From contig JACPOP010000015.1 of assembly GCA_016191465.1 (NCBI GenBank), forward strand, positions 210,261 to 274,260: 64,000 bases of DNA, in the 5' to 3' direction. The translations under genes were made by a program, and so were the position numbers. The notes under the pieces are model-generated. The model ran no database searches and was not told the DNA's origin. It saw nothing but the letters and a program-made list of their open reading frames with translations. The DNA is from Chloroflexota bacterium. GTDB lineage: Bacteria > Chloroflexota > UBA6077 > CF-72. This document shows positions 5,961 through 31,139 of the stretch, in pieces (the stretch's first letter is position 1; every line of letters begins with the position of its first letter).

Positions 5961-6317
5961 ATGAGCATGCAGGATCTGCCGGAGCCGCGAGGCGCCACCA
6001 CGCCGGTGGAAATCGAGCTGGACCGGGAAGCCCACGCGCTGCGCTTCGTGTGGTCCGACGGACAGAAGGCGGCCTTCGATTGGGAGTTCCTCCGCTGGCG
6101 CTGCCCGTGTGCGTTCTGCAGCGGCGAGGGAGGCCGCCCCGGCGAGCTCGAGGGCCGCACCGAGCTCCGGCCGGAAGAGTACGTCCTGACGGACGTCAAC
6201 GTCGTCGGCCGTTACGCGATCGTCCTCACCTGGCAGGACGGTCACGATACGGGAATTTTCACGTTCCGCGGGATGCGTGCCCTGGCCGAGCAGGCTGGCC
6301 TCATCCGCGCCGACTGA
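5961..6317 (+). CDS. DUF971 protein (gamma-butyrobetaine hydroxylase-like N-terminal domain)
   Basis: LRFVWSDGQKAAFDWEFLRWRCPCAFC...GRYAIVLTWQDGHDTGIFTF is the DUF971 signature as I recall it. Confidence 0.7.
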   Translation: MSMQDLPEPRGATTPVEIELDREAHALRFVWSDGQKAAFDWEFLRWRCPCAFCSGEGGRPGELEGRTELRPEEYVLTDVNVVGRYAIVLTWQDGHDTGIFTFRGMRALAEQAGLIRAD

Positions 6318-6343
6318 ACCATGAGCCGCGGAGGTCGTCAGGC

Positions 6344-6673
6344 TCAGCCGGCGAGCAGGCGCCACAGCACTGCGACCGCGAGCGCGATGCCGAACAGCAG
6401 CCGCAGGTGGCGCAGCCCATCGCGAGCGTTGTGGTACCAGAGCACGTCGTCGTCGCTCAGCCCCTCCGCGGCCTGGAGCCGCGCCCCGAAGCTGGCGTAG
6501 CCCAGCGAAATGAGCCCCAGCCACGCGGCAAGGAACAGCACCGCCAGCGTGCGGCTCCACACCTCGCCAATGACCGCCGCGGCGATGGCGACCAGGGTGA
6601 ACAAAATCTCGTAGAAGAAAACCATGGGGCTGCGCTGAGGTCGTCCGAGTGCGCCGAACAGTATGCGGGGCAC
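6344..6673 (-). CDS. Small membrane protein (about 3 TM), unknown function
   Basis: Hydrophobic 109-aa ORF sitting in a gap between real genes. GTG start; alternative ATG at 6625. Confidence 0.4.
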   Translation of the reverse strand: MPRILFGALGRPQRSPMVFFYEILFTLVAIAAAVIGEVWSRTLAVLFLAAWLGLISLGYASFGARLQAAEGLSDDDVLWYHNARDGLRHLRLLFGIALAVAVLWRLLAG

Positions 6674-6822
6674 ATGGGTAACGGCCTCGAATGGTCCGCG
6701 CGTGACAATGGAGCCCGACGCGCGCGACCGTGTGGCGGCCGGCCCGGAGATTCCATCCGAATGGGTTGCAGCGCACTGGTAAACTCACAGACAGGTGGGC
6801 GGTGCGTTGCGCCGCCTCTGCC

Positions 6823-9063
6823 ATGAGTACAGCCGCCGTTCAGCAGCCCCGCAGCCACCAGACCTTGCTGGAGGAAGCAGGGCGCTATCTCCTTGCGCCC
6901 GACGTCGAGCGCATTGATCGGGCATACGCGTTTGCATGTGAGGCCCACCGTCCGCAGGTCCGAGAGTCTGGCGAGCCGTACATCAACCACCCGCTCGCGG
7001 TCGCCGAGACGCTGGCGCAGCTCCGACTGGACACCGACACGATTGTTGGCGCGCTCTTGCACGACGTCCTCGAGGACTGTGGAATCCCCAGCAGCGAGAT
7101 CGAGACGCGCTTCGGGCGCACCGTTGCCTTGCTCGTCGACGGCGTCACCAAGCTCGACAAGATGCAGTTCTTCCAGCTCGACGCGGGTGCTGGCACCGGC
7201 GATGGACTGGGCGCAACTCGCACCACCCAGGAGCTGTGGGCGGAGAACATGCGCAAGATGTTCCTGGCCATGGCCGAGGACATCCGGGTAGTCCTCATCA
7301 AGCTGGCCGATCGCCTGCACAACATGAAGACGCTCCAGTACCGGGCTCCTGCCAAGCGGCGGCGCGTGGCCCAGGAGACGCTGGAGATCTACGCGCCGCT
7401 GGCGAACCGGCTGGGAATCTGGGAGATCAAATGGCAGCTCGAGGACCTCTCATTCCGCCACCTCGAGCCGGAGCTGTACCACCAGATCGCGGATAAGCTG
7501 GCCAGCCGCCGCCTGGTGCGTGAAAAGTACATCCACCGGGTCATCGAGATGCTGCGCATGGAGCTCGAGGATCGCGGGATTCGCGCCGAGTTGTCCGGCC
7601 GGCCGAAGCACATTTACAGCATCTACCGCAAGATGCAGCGTCGCGGGGTGGACGTGGACCAGATCTACGACCAGCTGGCGGTGCGGATATTGGTGGCCGA
7701 CGTCCCCGCCTGCTACGCGGCCCTCGGTGTGGTCCACTCCATGTGGCGGCCGCTGCCTGGCCAGTTCGACGACTACATCGCCACGCCCAAAGAAAGCATG
7801 TACCAGTCGCTCCACACCACGGTGCTGGCGGTGGACGGTCGGCCGCTCGAGATCCAGATCCGCACCCAGGACATGCACAGCGTGGCCGAATACGGCGTCG
7901 CCGCGCACTGGCGGTACAAGGAAGGGACCCGCCACGACCAGAAGTTCGACGCCAAGGTGGCGTGGCTGCGCCAGCTCATGGACTGGCAGAAGGACGTGGC
8001 CGGCGGCGCCCAGGAGTTCGTGGACTCGCTCAAGACCGAGCTGTTCCAGGACCAGGTCTACGTCTTCACTCCCAAGGGCGAAATCAAGGAGCTGCCAACC
8101 GGCGCCACGCCCCTCGACTTTGCTTACCGCATCCATACCGACGTGGGACACAAATGCGTCGGGTCCAAGGTCAACGGACGTCTCGTGGCGCTGGACACGA
8201 AGCTCCGGAATGGCGACGTGGTGGAGATCATCACGGCCAAGGGTTCACGCGGGCCGAGCCGCGACTGGCTGAACTCCAACCTGGGCTACGTTCACACCGC
8301 CCACGCCCGCGAGAAAATCCGCCAGTGGTTCCGCAAGCAGCAGCGCGGGGAGAACGTGCAGCGGGGACGTGAGCTGGTGGAGAAGGCCTTGAAGCGCGTC
8401 AACGTGGACGGGGTGAAGCTCGACGAGCTGGGCGCCCACTTCAAGTTCGACAAGCTGGACGATTTCCTGGCGGCTGTCGGCTACGGCGACGTGAACCCGG
8501 ACGAAGTTGTGCGCTACGTGCTCGCACGGGTGGAGGACGGCCGCAAGAGTGACCAGCCGCCAGAGGCCCCCACCACGTTTGCACAGGCGAGCGCCCCCAC
8601 GGGCGGGCTCAGGGTCATGGGCGTGGGCGACCTGCTGACCCGCATCTGCCGGTCCTGCAACCCTGTGCCGGGAGACGACATCGTGGGATTCATCACCCGC
8701 GGCCGGGGAGTCACCGTGCACCGCATGGACTGCTCATCGGTCCTGAACGAGGACGAGCTGGAGCGGCTCGTGACCGTCGATTGGAGCGGAACGGAGCAGC
8801 AGGTATTCCCGGTGACGGTGCGCGTGGAAGCATGGGACCGGGAGGGGCTGGTGCGCGACGTCTCGGCGACGCTTGCGGACGAGAAGGTGAACATCGTTGC
8901 CCTGACCGCGGTGGTCCACAAGGATCAAACCGCGACCGTGTGGGCGACCGTCGAGGTGCCGAAGCTCGACCGCCTCAGCCGCATCATGTCACGCCTCGAG
9001 GCCATCCGCGACGTATTCAACGTGATCCGGGACATCGGCGGCCACCAGTCCGCCCGGGCCTGA
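6823..9063 (+). CDS. relA: Bifunctional (p)ppGpp synthetase/hydrolase RelA/SpoT
   Basis: HD hydrolase (HPLAVA...LHDVLED), synthetase (RPKHIYSIYRKM, DQLAVRILV, YQSLHT), TGS and ACT regions. ATG 6823 chosen over the ORF-track start 6730. Confidence 0.95.
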   Translation: MSTAAVQQPRSHQTLLEEAGRYLLAPDVERIDRAYAFACEAHRPQVRESGEPYINHPLAVAETLAQLRLDTDTIVGALLHDVLEDCGIPSSEIETRFGRTVALLVDGVTKLDKMQFFQLDAGAGTGDGLGATRTTQELWAENMRKMFLAMAEDIRVVLIKLADRLHNMKTLQYRAPAKRRRVAQETLEIYAPLANRLGIWEIKWQLEDLSFRHLEPELYHQIADKLASRRLVREKYIHRVIEMLRMELEDRGIRAELSGRPKHIYSIYRKMQRRGVDVDQIYDQLAVRILVADVPACYAALGVVHSMWRPLPGQFDDYIATPKESMYQSLHTTVLAVDGRPLEIQIRTQDMHSVAEYGVAAHWRYKEGTRHDQKFDAKVAWLRQLMDWQKDVAGGAQEFVDSLKTELFQDQVYVFTPKGEIKELPTGATPLDFAYRIHTDVGHKCVGSKVNGRLVALDTKLRNGDVVEIITAKGSRGPSRDWLNSNLGYVHTAHAREKIRQWFRKQQRGENVQRGRELVEKALKRVNVDGVKLDELGAHFKFDKLDDFLAAVGYGDVNPDEVVRYVLARVEDGRKSDQPPEAPTTFAQASAPTGGLRVMGVGDLLTRICRSCNPVPGDDIVGFITRGRGVTVHRMDCSSVLNEDELERLVTVDWSGTEQQVFPVTVRVEAWDREGLVRDVSATLADEKVNIVALTAVVHKDQTATVWATVEVPKLDRLSRIMSRLEAIRDVFNVIRDIGGHQSARA

Positions 9064-26047: not shown

Positions 26048-26245
26048 GCTGCGTGCGCCTTCAGGTCTGGCTTGGAGTCCAGTGTGCGCGCCTGGCCAGG
26101 AGCCCAGCGCCACCGTCGCCGAGTATACGGGGGCTCTGCACGGCGGACCTGCCGCGCGGCCGGAACACTCCGGGGTTTTTACGAGAATGCATAGAATCAC
26201 CGCACCTTGAGGCTCGGCCCTGCCGATAGCTGAAGCACACCGGAC

Positions 26246-27385
26246 ATGCCTGTTTCCTCCACCAACAAGCGCGATTACTACGAGGTGCTCGGCGTCGGCC
26301 GAAGTGCATCGGACGACGACGTCAAGAAGGCGTACCGCAAGCTGGCGTTGCAGTTCCACCCGGACCGCAACACGGAACCGGACGCCACCGACAAGTTCAA
26401 GGAAGCCACCGAGGCGTACCAGGTTCTCGCTGATCCCGAGAAGCGCGGGATGTACGACCGCTACGGCCACGCCGCATTCGAGCGCAATGGCGGCGGCGCC
26501 GACTTCGGCAACTTTGCCGGGATCAACATCGAGGACATCTTCGAGTCGTTCTTTGGTGCCGCCGGCTCACGCGGCACGCGCCAGCGGGTCCAGCGTGGCC
26601 AGGACCTGCGCTACGACCTGCGGCTAACGCTGGAGGAAGCAGCCTTCGGCGTGGAGAAGGACATCACCAGCACGAAGAGCGTGGTGTGTGAGCGCTGCAC
26701 CGGTGCCGGGGTTGAGCCCGGCAGCGAGCCGGTCACCTGCGCGCGCTGCGCGGGCAGCGGCGAGATTCGACGGGCGCAGCAATCCATCTTCGGGCAGTTC
26801 GTCAACGTGACGCTGTGTGACCGCTGCAACGGCGAGGGCAAGGTCATCCCCGATCCGTGTACGGGCTGCCAGGGCCGGGGCCTCGTGCGAGGCCAGCGGA
26901 CGCTCCGAGTGAGCATTCCCCCCGGCGCCGACGACGGTTTGCAAATTCGCATCTCCGGCGAGGGCGAAGCCGCGCCGCGGGGCGGCATCCCGGGCCACCT
27001 GTACGTGGTGCTCCACGTGCAGCCGCACCGCTACTTCAAGCGGCAGGGCAGCGACCTGATGATGGAGGTTCCCATTAACGTCGCCCAGGCCACGCTCGGG
27101 ACCGAGTTCAAGGTGCAGGGGCTGGACGGGAAAGAGATCAACGTGAAGGTGCCCGCCGGCACCCAGAGCGGACGCATTCATCGCGTCAAGGGGGAGGGCG
27201 TGCCCCACCTGCGCGAGAACGGGCGAGGAGACCTCCAGGTCCACCTGAGGGTACGCATCCCAACCGAGCTCACCGATGAGCAGCGCAAGCTCTTCAAGCA
27301 GCTTGCTGCTACCTTCGGCACGACGAACGTCCCGAGCGAGAACAAGGGCTTCTTCGACAAGGTGAAGGACGTCTTCGGCGGCTAA
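26246..27385 (+). CDS. dnaJ: Chaperone DnaJ
   Basis: J-domain DYYEVLGV...HPDRN, G/F region, four CxxCxGxG zinc motifs, and a C-terminal domain. Confidence 0.97.
27341..27385. repeat. Left copy of 45-bp direct repeat (attL-like; native 3' end of dnaJ)
   Basis: AACAAGGGCTTCTTCGACAAGGTGAAGGACGTCTTCGGCGGCTAA. 43/45 identical to 29211-29255. Confidence 0.85.
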
Positions 27386-27397
27386 ACCATTCTGAGC

Positions 27398-27640
27398 TCA
27401 AACGAGCCCTCCGGACGAAGTGAGCTGCGGCCGTTCGCCGGGGAGGATCCTGAGCTGCTGCCGAACCTGGATGCGTTTGGCGTCAAGATCGACGTCCTGG
27501 CTGCCCAGCCCCAGTGCTTCGCCCATGCGCAGGCCGGTGGCCAGCACGAACGTGCATAGCCGCTCGTACTCGTGGCCGCGGAGCACGGCCAGGAAAGCGC
27601 TCGCCCGGTCGGGTCTCAGGAGTTGCGGCTCCGCCTCGTC
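27398..27640 (-). pseudogene. Tyrosine recombinase (phage-integrase family) fragment, truncated
   Basis: LRPDRASAFLAVLRGHEYERLCTFVLATGLRMGEALGLGSQDVDLDAKRIQVRQQL matches the start of the catalytic domain (TGLRxGE...W.DVDL). It stops 12 nt from the repeat, so the R-H-R-Y part is missing. The upstream region is frameshifted. Confidence 0.6.
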
Positions 27641-27678
27641 GCCCGCGCTCCCCAGCGCGTCGCCGATCTCCACGCGGA

Positions 27679-28149
27679 TCACGTGTTGCTCCGATCTCGC
27701 AGGCACCAGAGTCTCCGGGGACTCGCTGCGCAGCTGCTGGCGTGCGGGCGGTTCACGTGGATTAGCACGGCCAGTACGTGCTTGCATCTCGCGGTGCGGT
27801 ATCGGAAGTCGGGGCGGGTGCACTCGCGGGTGTTGGCCAGTTGCAGGATGCTCGGACTCCGATCGCTGGCGATGCCGTAGGCGAGCGGGTTGCCCGTCAC
27901 CACGTCGCGCACCTTGCCCCGCTGGCCAGAGCTGCGAGCCAGGCGCCGCGCCTTCAGCGGGCGCGGGTCGGGGCTCGGCGCCGCCGCGGCGGGACGGTAG
28001 GTCGGGCACTTCTTGAAGCCATGACGGTAGTCGAGCACTGTCTGATCGATCAGCCGCCTGGCCTCGGCGGCGGAGTCATACGTCGTGAGTGCCGGCGTCT
28101 CGATCTCCACCTGGTGCCCACACGCGATGTCCACGATCGTCCGTTCCAT
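27679..28149 (-). CDS. Hypothetical protein with degenerate SWIM-like zinc-finger tail (possibly decaying)
   Basis: ECTRPDFRYRTARCKHVLAVL resembles SWIM CxCPDF...CKHxxAV, with the second Cys replaced by Arg. It runs into the integrase fragment in a different frame. Confidence 0.3.
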   Translation of the reverse strand: MERTIVDIACGHQVEIETPALTTYDSAAEARRLIDQTVLDYRHGFKKCPTYRPAAAAPSPDPRPLKARRLARSSGQRGKVRDVVTGNPLAYGIASDRSPSILQLANTRECTRPDFRYRTARCKHVLAVLIHVNRPHASSCAASPRRLWCLRDRSNT

Positions 28150-28200
28150 CTGTCTTGCCGATCTATTCGCCTACGAAGTGCTAACTCTATGGTAACCTGT

Positions 28201-28220
28201 TGCGTGCCTCTCAGCACGCA
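28201..28220. promoter_or_regulatory. Inverted-repeat operator candidate in the divergent control region of the element
   Basis: TGCGTGC-ctctca-GCACGCA, located between the minus-strand ORF start (28149) and the XRE gene. Confidence 0.4.
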
Positions 28221-28224
28221 CTAG

Positions 28225-28503
28225 GTGCGAGTTGTGACAACACTCGGCAAGCAACTGGCACGCAAACGGTGTACACTCCGCGTTGAGGAGACGCTGTTGG
28301 GACTTCCCCGCCTAAAGGAATGGCGCGAGCGGCGCTTGCTGACTCAGGCCGATCTCGCTGAACGGTCCGGCGTCGCTGAGACCACGATCAACCGCATTGA
28401 GAACGGGCATCACGAGGCGCGATTCAGCACGACGAGGAAGCTGGCCTCAGCGCTGGATGTCCCTCCGTCCGAACTGATGGAGCCCGAGGGCACCAGAACG
28501 TGA
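28225..28503 (+). CDS. XRE-family helix-turn-helix regulator
   Basis: LKEWRERRLLTQADLAERSGVAETTINRIENGHHEARFSTTRKLASALDV. The more likely start is TTG 28297, preceded by GAGGAG. Confidence 0.75.
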   Translation: MRVVTTLGKQLARKRCTLRVEETLLGLPRLKEWRERRLLTQADLAERSGVAETTINRIENGHHEARFSTTRKLASALDVPPSELMEPEGTRT

Positions 28504-28539
28504 CGCACCCGGTGTGAACGTCGAGAGGAGGAGAAGCAC

Positions 28540-28746
28540 ATGACGACGAAGGAACGGCTGCTCGACCTGGTGGACCAGCTCGACGAGGCCGAAGTCGACG
28601 AGCTGCTCGACTACGCCGGCTGGCTCGCCCAGGAGATTGACACACTCACGAGCAAAGAGCTGGCGCGGGTGCAGGCCGGTGAGGCGGAGATCGCCCGCGG
28701 TGCATGCACGACGCTTCAGGATCTGCGCGGCCGCCTCGGGCTTTGA
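28540..28746 (+). CDS. Type II antitoxin (68 aa, acidic)
   Basis: Small acidic ORF whose TGA overlaps the toxin start (TTGA at 28743-28746). Confidence 0.65.
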   Translation: MTTKERLLDLVDQLDEAEVDELLDYAGWLAQEIDTLTSKELARVQAGEAEIARGACTTLQDLRGRLGL

Positions 28747-29006
28747 CCTACACCGTCCGCCTTGCCCGTCAGGCGGAGCGCTACCTCGAACGTCTCCCGC
28801 AGGACGTGCAGCGGCGCATGCTGGAGCGCCTCGGCCAGCTCGCCCACGACCCATACGGCGTGAATACCAAGCCCTTACAGGGCGCCCTTGGGCGGCGCTC
28901 CTCGCGCGTTGGCGGGTGGCGGATCCTTTTTCGCGTTGATGAGGAGGCGTCCGAAGTGGACGTGTCTGACATCGGCCCGCGTGGGCAGATCTACAGGGGG
29001 CTCTGA
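28743..29006 (+). CDS. RelE/ParE-family type II toxin
   Basis: YTVRLARQAERYLERLPQDVQRRMLERLGQLAHDP...LQGALGRRSSRVGGWRILFRVDEEASEVDVSDIGPRGQIY fits the RelE/ParE pattern (RVGDYRIIY..I..RG.VY). Confidence 0.75.
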   Translation: MTYTVRLARQAERYLERLPQDVQRRMLERLGQLAHDPYGVNTKPLQGALGRRSSRVGGWRILFRVDEEASEVDVSDIGPRGQIYRGL

Positions 29007-29095
29007 TGACAGATCGGCCGCGACCTTGCGCCCCGCATGACCCAATTCACTGGACACCGCAAAAAGGCGGTCCCCACGTAGTGAGCAGTACGCCT

Positions 29096-29119
29096 GGGTA
29101 GCAACCGTGGGTAGCAACC
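29096..29119. repeat. Tandem 11-bp direct repeat GGGTAGCAACC x2 (arm-type recombinase site candidate)
   Basis: 29096-29106 and 29109-29119 are identical. They lie ~90 bp inside the right repeat and are flanked by CTGGGT...ACCCAG. Confidence 0.4.
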
Positions 29120-29210
29120 CAGTCGCCCGAGCCTGCCATCCCCCACCCCTTGACGCCTGCTACCCTCCTTGGGGCGACTAATGACGACCCGTCCCGCCCA
29201 ACCTGCGCTC

Positions 29211-29255
29211 AACAAAGGCTTCTTCGACAAGGTGAAAGACGTCTTCGGCGGCTAA
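29211..29255. repeat. Right copy of 45-bp direct repeat (attR-like; orphan dnaJ 3' end)
   Basis: AACAAAGGCTTCTTCGACAAGGTGAAAGACGTCTTCGGCGGCTAA. It differs from the left copy only at 29216 and 29237, both synonymous AAG>AAA. Confidence 0.85.
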
Positions 29256-29422: not shown

Positions 29423-30382
29423 ATGAGTGAGACGCCCAGGAACGTTCCAGCCGCTGCGGCCCCGGACGCGTGGCTCGAGCTGACGTGTGAAGCCGAGCCC
29501 GAAGCGGTCGAGTCCGTATCGGAGGCGTTTGCCCGGTGGGGGCAGGGGGTTGCCATCGAGCAGCCGGTGGTCTCCTCGCGGGACGGAGACGAAGTCTCGA
29601 TACCGGCGGACGCACCGGTGATCGTCAAGACCTATCTGCCGTTGCTGGACCCGGAGACGCCCGAACGGCGCGAGCAGATCGAGCGGGCGGTTTGGGCGCT
29701 GGGCAAGCTCCGCCAGGTCGGGCCGCTGCGCGTCCAGACACTCCGCGAGGAGGACTGGGCGAACGCTTGGAAGGAGCACTTCTTCGTCCACCGCATGGGA
29801 ACGCGGACGGTGGTCGTCCCATCGTGGCGGCAGGATGAGTACGAGCCGCGCGAGGGCGACGTGGTACTGGTGCTCGACCCCGGCATGGCCTTCGGCACAG
29901 GACTCCATCCCACCACACGCCTGTGCATCTCGGCTCTCGAAGGCCTTGTGCAGCGGGGGATGCGGGTTCTCGACGTGGGTGCCGGTTCTGGGATCCTGTC
30001 AATTGGCGCGGCAAAGATGGGAGCCGCCCAGGTCGACGCCGTTGAGATCGAGCATGTCGCGGTTGAAGTCTGCCGCGAAAATGCCAGACTGAATGACGTG
30101 TCCGATCTGGTAGCAGTCCATCAGGGGACGCTCGACCCCGCGCACGGCGATGCCGCTCCCTACGATCTGCTGGTGGCGAACATCACCATTCGGGTGCTGA
30201 CCGAGCTCTTCCCACTGTTTGCCCAGCACCTGCGGCCTGCCGCCCCCGCCATTCTCTCCGGCGTGCTCGAAGAGCGCGCCGACGAGCTGATCGCCGCGAT
30301 GACCGCGGCCGGCTGGCGACACGAGCGCACCGACGTCGAGGGCGACTGGGTGGCGCTGCAGCTTCGCGCTCCCGATGCCTGA
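29423..30382 (+). CDS. prmA: Ribosomal protein L11 methyltransferase
   Basis: WLELTCEAEPEAVESVSEAF, DWANAWKEHF, PGMAFGTGLHPTT, VLDVGAGSGILSI. ATG 29423; the ORF-track extension to 29150 crosses the repeat. Confidence 0.93.
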   Translation: MSETPRNVPAAAAPDAWLELTCEAEPEAVESVSEAFARWGQGVAIEQPVVSSRDGDEVSIPADAPVIVKTYLPLLDPETPERREQIERAVWALGKLRQVGPLRVQTLREEDWANAWKEHFFVHRMGTRTVVVPSWRQDEYEPREGDVVLVLDPGMAFGTGLHPTTRLCISALEGLVQRGMRVLDVGAGSGILSIGAAKMGAAQVDAVEIEHVAVEVCRENARLNDVSDLVAVHQGTLDPAHGDAAPYDLLVANITIRVLTELFPLFAQHLRPAAPAILSGVLEERADELIAAMTAAGWRHERTDVEGDWVALQLRAPDA

Positions 30383-31139
30383 CGGCGAGCGGCCCCCACG
30401 CCACCGCTTCTATGTGCCTGCCGAGCGCTGGGACAGCGCTCGAGTGAGGTTCTCACCCACTCAGCAGCAACAGATGCATCGTGTGCTCCGGCTCAGCACC
30501 GGCGATCTCGTCCGCGCTTTCGACGGGCTGCGGAGTGACGACTCGGTGGCCGCGCTGGCGCAGGAGGATGACGCGCTGGTGGGCGTGGTTGTTGGGTCCG
30601 CGGAGTGCGCCCCGGAGCCGACGCTGAACGTGCACGCCTACCCGGCCGTGCTGCCGCGGGATCGGTACGAGCTGGTGCTTCGGCAACTGGTCGAGGTCGG
30701 CGCCGCGAGCATCACGCCGCTCGTGACCGAGCGCTGCGTCGCCACAATCGGCGACGAGTGGGAGAGGCGGCGGCCCCGCTGGGAGCGCATCCTCGTCGAG
30801 GCTGCCGAGCAATCAGAGCGGGCGCGAGTCCCACTCCTGCGAGAGCCGGCCCAACTGGGACGCGCACTCGCCTCGGCGGCCGCGCTCGGTCCGGTGATCG
30901 TCGCGGACCCCCGCCACGAGTCCGCGATCCCATTTAGTCGCCTGCGGGAGCGGGTCGGAACCCCGGGCACCATCAGCCTGTTCGTCGGCCCCGAGGGCGG
31001 ATTCTCCAGGGACGAAGTTGGTGGAGCCCTGAGAGCCGGAGCCCGGCTCGCGTTTGCCGGGCGCACCGTGCTGCGCGCCGAGACGGCCTCGCCCGTCCTC
31101 GCCGCGCTCCTCCTGCACGCGCTGGCCCGGGACGGCTGA
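30375..31139 (+). CDS. rsmE: 16S rRNA (uracil1498-N3)-methyltransferase
   Basis: HRFYVP...QMHRVLRL..GD; C-terminal FVGPEGGFSRDE...LRAETA. Overlaps the prmA end by 8 nt. Confidence 0.9.
   Translation: MPDGERPPRHRFYVPAERWDSARVRFSPTQQQQMHRVLRLSTGDLVRAFDGLRSDDSVAALAQEDDALVGVVVGSAECAPEPTLNVHAYPAVLPRDRYELVLRQLVEVGAASITPLVTERCVATIGDEWERRRPRWERILVEAAEQSERARVPLLREPAQLGRALASAAALGPVIVADPRHESAIPFSRLRERVGTPGTISLFVGPEGGFSRDEVGGALRAGARLAFAGRTVLRAETASPVLAALLLHALARDG

Follow-up and report, generated by a model that had tools for sequence, protein, structure and literature searches.

A decayed remnant, very probably of a phage-like integrative element, at the 3′ end of dnaJ in a Chloroflexota bacterium

In the stretch of 64,000 nucleotides of a Chloroflexota bacterium analyzed here (assembly GCA_016191465.1, contig JACPOP010000015.1, positions 210,261 to 274,260; hereafter the window), dnaJ is separated from prmA and rsmE by an island of 1825 bp (27386-29210), which is bounded by two copies of the dnaJ gene end and contains an integrase fragment together with several small genes. 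An original prediction, made from the letters of the window, had interpreted this island as an integrative element that entered dnaJ by site-specific recombination and subsequently decayed. The final 45 nt of dnaJ, AACAAGGGCTTCTTCGACAAGGTGAAGGACGTCTTCGGCGGCTAA (27341-27385), recur at 29211-29255 with 43/45 identity, and prmA starts 167 nt past this second copy. Each of the two mismatches (27346/29216 and 27367/29237) places G against A in the third position of a codon (AAG versus AAA) and is synonymous, and the same 14-amino-acid C-terminus of DnaJ is encoded by both copies; alignment and translation thus bore out the repeat as originally described. The edges of the repeat are sharp, with GAG versus CTC upstream of AACAA and ACCATT versus TCACAC past TAA. 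Only two copies of the dnaJ-end motif occur in the window when up to three mismatches are allowed, and none of 100 shuffles gave a match; the duplication is neither a chance match nor part of a dispersed repeat family. Att-like direct repeats that bound a segment, one of them completing the host gene, are the arrangement of a site-specific integrative element.

Relatives were found with the site empty, with the site occupied, and with the element free. Of the 80 genome loci that encode DnaJ relatives, over 20 (including L009, L010, L012, L014, L017, and L046) have prmA starting no more than a few hundred bp past the dnaJ stop codon, in most cases within approximately 150 bp, and carry a single copy of the dnaJ-end motif, as anticipated for relatives without the island; these empty-site relatives are distant, their DnaJ proteins being 50-64% identical. 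In blastn and tblastx searches of the island against the 80 loci, L007 was the sole match. This locus, whose DnaJ is 71% identical, contains an insert of 3.6 kb that lies between the dnaJ end and a 39/45 duplicate of that end and encodes an intact tyrosine-type integrase of 419 aa in the same orientation as the window fragment. Two dnaJ-end copies 3.4 kb apart flank an intact integrase in L162, and in L167/168 and L171 an intact integrase gene, convergent with dnaJ, ends 85-105 bp from the dnaJ stop codon; neither the L171 attR nor the distal end of the L167/168 element was found within those contigs. The free state is represented by L163 and L164-166, which are without a dnaJ gene and carry a dnaJ-end mimic approximately 100 bp past the integrase stop codon, with element genes on both sides. 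The mimic, AA[TC]AA[GA]AGCTTCTTCGACAAAGTCAA[AG]GATGT…TGA, encodes the C-terminal letters of DnaJ followed by G or A and a stop, and looks like the attP site of an un-integrated element; the free form was thus found for related elements and not for the window's own element. With their genes for a DNA primase/helicase, an HTH_17 excisionase, an M23 peptidase/tape-measure-like protein, and a virion-protein-like open reading frame (ORF), these un-integrated relatives are, judged by predicted gene content, phage-like.

The adjacency of dnaJ and prmA, which had been taken as normal, is frequent without being universal among the closest relatives, and L003, L004, L005, L006, and L008 hold 2-10 kb at this place. 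The 2.4-9.6 kb gaps of these five loci and of L079 were considered as candidate islands and rejected, since they contain neither an integrase homolog nor a second dnaJ end; their ORFs resemble ordinary cellular genes when the translations are inspected by eye. The 9.6-kb gap of L006 (8521-18135) resembles by eye a lasso-peptide-type cluster, with a small PqqD-like ORF, a transglutaminase-like ORF, a 698-aa asparagine-synthase-like ORF, and an ABC transporter.

The attP architecture is shared by the occupied and free elements. In the dnaJ orientation, five diverged elements have the left edge of homology at one and the same Asn codon (AAC/AAT), and the homology between element and gene in several of them runs approximately 12 nt past the stop codon, through TTTGAACTCA. 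Short repeats flank the core at conserved positions in five of five P arms and six of six P′ arms (Table 1), with one motif variant per element on both arms; the arm-site consensus is approximately [GT][AG][CT]AGCAA[CT], and both consensus and spacing are specific to this family. Because their offsets are conserved and their sequence co-varies with the integrase lineage, the repeats were taken as arm-type integrase-binding sites. The original prediction had noted 11-bp tandem repeats near the right copy of the gene end; the repeat is present, and its period is 13 nt (1.9 copies, 100% match in Tandem Repeats Finder), with the motif occurring nowhere else in the window. It looks like the P-arm site pair, by which the attR side would be complete. 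On the other side, the attL flank CTGAGCTCAAAC is similar to the attL flank CTGAACTCAAAC of L007 and to the TTTGAACTCA motif in the attP sites of L163 and L164, while the P′ repeats are not in this flank.

A search for the integrase family gave 811 matches at E ≤ 1e-10, among which integrases of 35-45% identity are encoded approximately 100 bp away from tRNA genes and on the other strand, in the same geometry. In a neighbor-joining tree without bootstrap, six dnaJ-site integrases form one clade, inside which P0008, from a contig too short to show its target, is nested; the integrase of L172, with the same arm architecture and a different core, is sister to the clade, and the tRNA-targeting integrases are the outgroup. 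The window fragment is closest to members of the dnaJ clade. This branching order is suggestive of one change of target, from tRNA to dnaJ, inside a single integrase clade. The best integrase matches in the phage collection INPHARED are from Thermus and Mycobacterium phages (31-33% identity), the exact degenerate core pattern had no match in IMG/VR, and the integrase relatives in IMG/VR were without a dnaJ-type attP. The L172 element (6529-7000; Logan SRR29078157_27164), source of the sister integrase P0018, repeats the attP layout, with ATGTAGCAAC-like arm repeats on both sides; AACAAGA… and …TTGAACTCAAAC stand approximately 51 nt apart there, the sequence between them is not dnaJ-like, and a different target gene with the same scaffold is possibly involved.

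These comparisons support the claim of site-specific integration into the 3′ end of dnaJ. A duplication arising otherwise, for instance if the dnaJ end was duplicated locally and foreign genes were later inserted illegitimately, would explain a short direct repeat flanking foreign DNA and nothing more, and is highly improbable, since free elements carry the same dnaJ-end mimic by the integrase, five diverged elements share one Asn codon as the edge of homology, the offsets of the arm repeats are conserved, and a fragment of a dnaJ-clade integrase abuts attL.

Table 1. Coordinates of the features at the dnaJ-prmA locus of the window, and positions of arm-type repeats in the island and related elements (negative offsets from the core start, positive offsets after the stop codon)
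Feature	Position	Strand	Basis or remark
dnaJ, target gene, 379 aa, intact	26246-27385	+	Pfam DnaJ, DnaJ_CXXCXGXG, and DnaJ_C domains, E 1e-16 to 1e-47
Putative attL core, final 14 codons and TAA of dnaJ	27341-27385	+	direct repeat D1
Stub of integrase-side (P′) arm, contains CTGAGCTCAAAC, +57/+69 arm-type repeats gone	27386-27415		resembles L007 attL flank
Tyrosine integrase, internal fragment, 76 codons	27416-27643	-	tblastn against nine full-length integrases
Small SWIM-zinc-finger-family gene, 156 aa, apparently full length	27679-28149	-	exhaustive HMMER search
Imperfect inverted repeat I22	28195-28270		arms 28195-28208 and 28257-28270, 14 nt each, 48 nt apart, 86% complementary
XRE/Cro-CI-type helix-turn-helix regulator, divergent from SWIM gene	28225-28503	+	Pfam HTH_3, 6e-16
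Putative antitoxin, 68 aa	28540-28746	+	position and overlap only; stop overlaps toxin start by 4 nt
RelE/ParE-family toxin, 87 aa	28743-29006	+	PF05016, 31.2 bits, cut-off 23
Two arm-type repeats TGGGTAGCAACC in P arm (predicted)	29095-29119	+	-116 and -103 from core start
Putative attR core, displaced copy of dnaJ end	29211-29255	+	direct repeat
prmA and rsmE	29423-31139 (prmA 29423-30382, rsmE 30375-31139)	+	Pfam PrmA 5.8e-71, Methyltrans_RNA 6e-35
P arm, window	-116/-103		TGGGTAGCAACC, two copies
P arm, L163 and L164	-116/-104		TGGACAGCAACG, two copies
P arm, L007 and L162	-126/-114/-94		GTACAGCAA, three copies
P′ arm, all six intact elements	+57 and +69		two copies of the element's own motif variant
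attP (~400 bp) with GGACAGCAAC repeats, for P0023 or P0012 integrase	e.g., L164 ~6150-6520

Within the island, the integrase fragment aligned in tblastn with nine full-length integrases at 53-61% identity (E down to 2e-24) over query residues ~165-240 of the ~375-aa relatives, that is, from the end of the core-binding domain to the region of the first catalytic Arg (ATGLRMGEALGL). The homology ends after …PGERPQLT, where the relatives go on with PKSxSGRR, and neither the N-terminal half nor the catalytic residues beyond the first Arg were found in the island. The predicted integrase fragment at the left repeat is accordingly present, as an internal piece and not as a gene end; the profile search that had been proposed with PF00589 gave a match of 21.4 bits, under the cut-off, and the homology is established from the tblastn identities. 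An extension of the homology to 27757 was given by P0010 alone, with the additional part almost without identities, and was not adopted. A functional integrase with R…K…HxxR…Y beside the att site is not found in the window, while the integrase is intact in L007, L162, L167, and L171; the window element was therefore regarded as a remnant and not as a functional member of the family. With the P′ arm repeats deleted as well, the prediction that the element is too small for autonomy was upheld. The island had also been described as the only non-housekeeping DNA in the window; gene calls covered approximately 10 kb on either side, and no second integrase of this family is present anywhere in the window.

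The SWIM-like ORF (HYX52_06455 in NCBI; GC content at third codon positions (GC3) 0.85, coding-like) retrieved 24 relatives in the exhaustive HMMER search, the best of 160 aa and 44% identical (E 1.6e-23, near end-to-end alignment), while a word-indexed search returned the ORF itself alone. The family consists of small proteins with CxC…CxH, in which C110, C122, and H124 of alignment A2 are invariant and C112 is nearly invariant. The window protein reads C-T-R…C-K-H, with Arg at the second Cys, a position nearly invariant in 14 homologs; its PF04434 score is 18.2 (cut-off 19.6), and the CxCxnCxH zinc-ligand signature is not present. The original assignment thus holds for a real small-protein family in which the second Cys of CxC has been lost here, and the protein, homologous to the family, is probably not zinc-competent. 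An HNH_3 endonuclease gene directly follows the closest SWIM homolog (L257:100-1096; JGI Ga0613655_035028), a pairing that would fit a phage origin of the SWIM family; the 1.2-kb contig was uninformative about the wider context of this homolog. A tblastx match between window 27827-27979 and L163 7986-8138 is antisense to the called gene, weak, and GC-rich, and was rejected as spurious.

The XRE protein matches PHROG families of transcriptional regulators/repressors and is 48-49% identical to the XRE proteins of L164 and L172. At the divergent start of the SWIM and XRE genes, the arms ACCTGTTGCGTGCC … GGCACGCAAACGGT of the inverted repeat I22, the left one intergenic and the right one within the listed XRE ORF, may constitute an operator for the XRE protein. 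Of the predicted toxin-antitoxin pair, the toxin has a family match, with hits to RelE/ParE profiles that include PHROG 1213 (RelE-like, 7.6e-15, profile positions 1-85 of 88), and the antitoxin is assigned from position, the 68-aa ORF having a weak DUF2281 match (E 0.035) and no NCBIfam or PHROG match. Rfam gave nothing in the island, and a scan for promoters and terminators gave no result above shuffles, with no promoter-like site and one terminator-like site versus 1.2 expected.

Since the source is a metagenome-assembled genome and metagenome assemblies can collapse or chimerize at repeats, an artefact of assembly or binning, in which the common 45 bp would have linked phage-derived reads with dnaJ, was also weighed; it is highly improbable. 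A separate Logan assembly of run SRR12113392 gives the identical 13.9-kb arrangement, the two 45-bp copies differ at two positions and each is joined to distinct flanks, the content is a rearranged and deleted element instead of a segment of a phage genome, an outcome not expected of a chimera, and the coding GC3 matches the host.

The gene order indicates from which part of an element the island was derived. SWIM (−) and XRE (+) lie directly upstream of the integrase in L172/173, XRE and SWIM are divergent on the P-arm side of L164, SWIM homologs also occur in L163 and in the IMG/VR viral contig L176, and in the viral contig L177 an XRE homolog is located just upstream of the integrase; the divergent SWIM/XRE pair is a conserved module. 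In the dnaJ orientation, the order in L164 is SWIM (−), XRE (+), small ORFs, P arm, and core, and that in the window is SWIM (−), XRE (+), antitoxin, RelE, P arm, and attR. As the two orders agree, the right ~1.6 kb of the island corresponds, in collinear order, to the right end of such an element.

On the basis of these comparisons, the island is very probably the immobile remnant of a temperate, phage-like integrative element that targets the 3′ end of dnaJ. In the proposed mechanism, a lambda-type tyrosine integrase would have recombined attP with an attB formed by the terminal ~45 bp of dnaJ. In this family, the predicted attP mimics the final 14-15 codons and the stop codon of dnaJ, with the core flanked by two or three arm-type repeats at about -126 to -94 and two at +57/+69, and the integrase gene, reading toward dnaJ, ends about 85-105 bp past the stop codon. 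Integration would leave dnaJ intact, with attL composed of a dnaJ end and the integrase-side arm, and attR composed of the other arm and the second dnaJ end. At least two later deletions may then have occurred: the first from ~+30 of the P′ arm to integrase codon ~240, and the second from integrase codon ~165 to just past the SWIM stop codon, the latter with loss of the genes for excision, replication, and virions. The two cores, the whole right arm, the SWIM/XRE pair, and the RelE-type toxin-antitoxin pair remain. Two deletions are the simplest history, their number and order being deduced from what is left, and the toxin-antitoxin pair and/or the repressor may have helped the remnant persist. 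Given that the P′ arm repeats and most of the integrase are deleted, the element is considered immobile.

There is a slight chance that the remnant is non-autonomous and still mobilizable in trans, in the style of cis-mobilizable elements, by a related integrase and excisionase, or that it could recombine with a related element, in that both cores are 43/45 identical, the P arm is intact and keeps both arm-type repeats, and the site is reused in nature, as in L162, where an intact element lies beside an older remnant. Against such mobilization stand the loss from the attL flank of the P′ repeats, which are found at +57/+69 in all six intact elements, and of any excisionase gene. In lambda-type systems, excision by attL × attR recombination needs the P′ arm sites, and by analogy the window element would probably not be excised.

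The L162 locus appears to show tandem accretion at the dnaJ end. Beyond its attR (L162:1640-1956; JGI Ga0683598_0010055), an integrase fragment of 68 codons, with 88% identity to the intact enzyme of this locus, abuts a core, reads toward it, and retains one degenerate arm repeat; an older remnant would thus lie behind a newer element, the site having been used more than once and the decay having taken the form seen in the window. The 3.4-3.6-kb elements of L007 (11137-14802) and L162 (1924-5376) themselves have intact integrases, repeats on both arms, homologous small ORFs (64% and 55% identity), and, in each case, an ORF of ~310-330 aa of unknown function between dnaJ and the integrase gene; they may be functional minimal or satellite-like elements and not remnants.

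Several observations weigh against the interpretation as a dnaJ-targeting remnant or limit its details. The proposed synteny comparison gave empty sites and occupied homologs, none of them in a close relative: the DnaJ of the window is 71-74% identical to those of the closest Chloroflexota metagenome-assembled genomes, and with a best match of 74% the empty-site comparison is cross-genus or wider; an exact PrmA look-up for an empty-site strain returned no record, and no full-length element was found in a close relative. The Logan contig of SRR12113392 (L081) is 100% identical over 13.9 kb and adds no population information. Close integrases that are not beside dnaJ occur in L170, L172, L174, and L088. 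The assignment of the repeats as integrase-binding sites is a prediction from their position and sequence. No homolog of the RelE/antitoxin pair was found in the related elements fetched, and this pair could have been gained after integration instead of being original cargo. Finally, two clues to the crossover position conflict. In the host dnaJ, AAG prevails over AAA by 19:1, by which attL looks native and the crossover would lie rightward of 27367. Conservation of the attP mimic is at the amino acid level and includes the stop codon, and the attL/attR/attP data of the Bifidobacterium phages described below are, in our reading, those of a crossover at GCAAGTT; by these, the crossover would lie in the left part of the core and most of the core would be supplied by the element. 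Any crossover position is therefore a candidate only, and DnaJ is unchanged either way.

Variation at the end of dnaJ extends beyond the occupied loci. The C-termini of DnaJ in L001-L008 vary (…VFGG, …VFGGG, …VFSAG, …VFSGG, …VFHGN, and …DVPS; for example, the dnaJ 3′ ends at L003:9588-9626, L005:11111-11143, and L006:8483-8521). The dnaJ gene of L005 ends early and is followed by the inverted repeat GACGTGCCGTCATGAAGACGGCAC, and the attR end of L007 (…VFSGG and stop) equals the gene end of L004. Past integrations in which the gene end was replaced could have left these varied C-termini as scars. For annotation, an element may have supplied the last residues of DnaJ in this clade. At the other end of the gene, dnaJ of the window begins 195 nt (26051-26245) after a divergent fabF-like gene, with no hrcA there, and hrcA is located between fabF and dnaJ in L167 (5408-6433) and L171 (6431-7450).

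The mechanism proposed here is textbook site-specific integration followed by decay, and the feature in the window is in itself ordinary. What the comparison with relatives adds is a compact definition of attP in a phylum that has received little study and in which few mobile elements are known: the core imitates 14-15 codons of a gene for an essential chaperone, and the arm repeats keep fixed distances from it. With this, targeting of the dnaJ end reaches past Actinobacteria to Chloroflexota as a second phylum, a probable switch from a tRNA to a protein-gene target within one integrase clade is indicated, and the intact integrase/attP pairs of L163, L164, and L167 become candidate integration tools for Chloroflexota. 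A wider reading is conceivable but tentative: the FFxKxKD codons would be a recurrent hot spot reached independently in the two phyla, in Chloroflexota by one switch from a tRNA target, and the site would accumulate elements serially, as in L162, with the remnant kept for the immunity or defense that the XRE regulator and the RelE toxin-antitoxin pair would confer against related incoming phages, to which attL would still be usable as attB.

Several known systems resemble the island in part. Cryptic prophage remnants keep toxin-antitoxin and repressor genes, such as relBE in the Qin prophage of Escherichia coli K-12. The window likewise keeps a predicted RelE-family toxin-antitoxin pair and an XRE-type regulator; it differs from Qin-type remnants in that its pair is without a homolog in the related elements fetched. 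Cis-mobilizable elements and other decayed islands flanked by att sites reportedly occur at housekeeping genes, for example at the 3′ end of fda in Streptococcus thermophilus. They share with the window the flanking att sites, the absence of a recombination module, the position at the 3′ end of a housekeeping gene, and tandem accretion (compare L162), whereas one arm of the window element has lost its integrase-binding repeats, conjugation genes are not present, and the intact relatives are phage-like; with one arm devoid of these repeats, mobilization in trans is doubtful. The systems of the lambda/L5 type resemble the present family in an integrase with an N-terminal SAM-like/arm-binding region and a catalytic domain, and, together with tRNA islands, in arm motifs on both sides of the core, a core that duplicates the 3′ end of the target, and an integrase gene adjoining the core. 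The difference is that the target here is the 3′ end of a protein-coding gene and the mimic is conserved at the amino acid level.

The closest counterpart is found in the temperate phages of Bifidobacterium breve and B. longum (Bb423phi1, Binf-1, and others), in which a tyrosine integrase directs integration into the 3′ end of dnaJ2 through a 35-bp core, with reconstruction of the gene (PMC6109161). The core TTCTTCAGCAAGTTGAAGGACGCACTGAGCTGA encodes FFSKLKDALS followed by a stop, the prophages are intact, 39-43 kb in length, and inducible, and the dnaJ2 site was described as apparently unique to Actinobacteria (PMC6109161). The earlier view of dnaJ as a rare attachment site must therefore be set beside this precedent. 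Both systems combine a tyrosine integrase with a core over the 3′ end of dnaJ and restoration of the gene, and TTCTTCAGCAAGTTGAAGGACG… of Bifidobacterium (FFSKLKD… to the stop) and TTCTTCGACAAGGTGAAGGACG… of the window (FFDKVKD… to the stop) encode a homologous C-terminal motif; by eye, approximately 19 of 22 nt are identical across TTCTTCNNCAAGNTGAAGGACG, and both cores overlap the FFxKxKD codons. They differ in host phylum (Actinobacteria versus Chloroflexota), in the gene used (the paralog dnaJ2 there versus the dnaJ beside fabF and prmA here), in the core (35 bp there versus ~45-57 bp here, starting 9 nt further upstream), and in preservation (intact prophages of 39-43 kb versus a 1.8-kb wreck). 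The Bifidobacterium core had no match in INPHARED. Because the tRNA-targeting integrases branch closer to the Chloroflexota clade than does any phage integrase in INPHARED (best 33%), the targeting of dnaJ in Bifidobacterium and in Chloroflexota is likely to be of independent origin.

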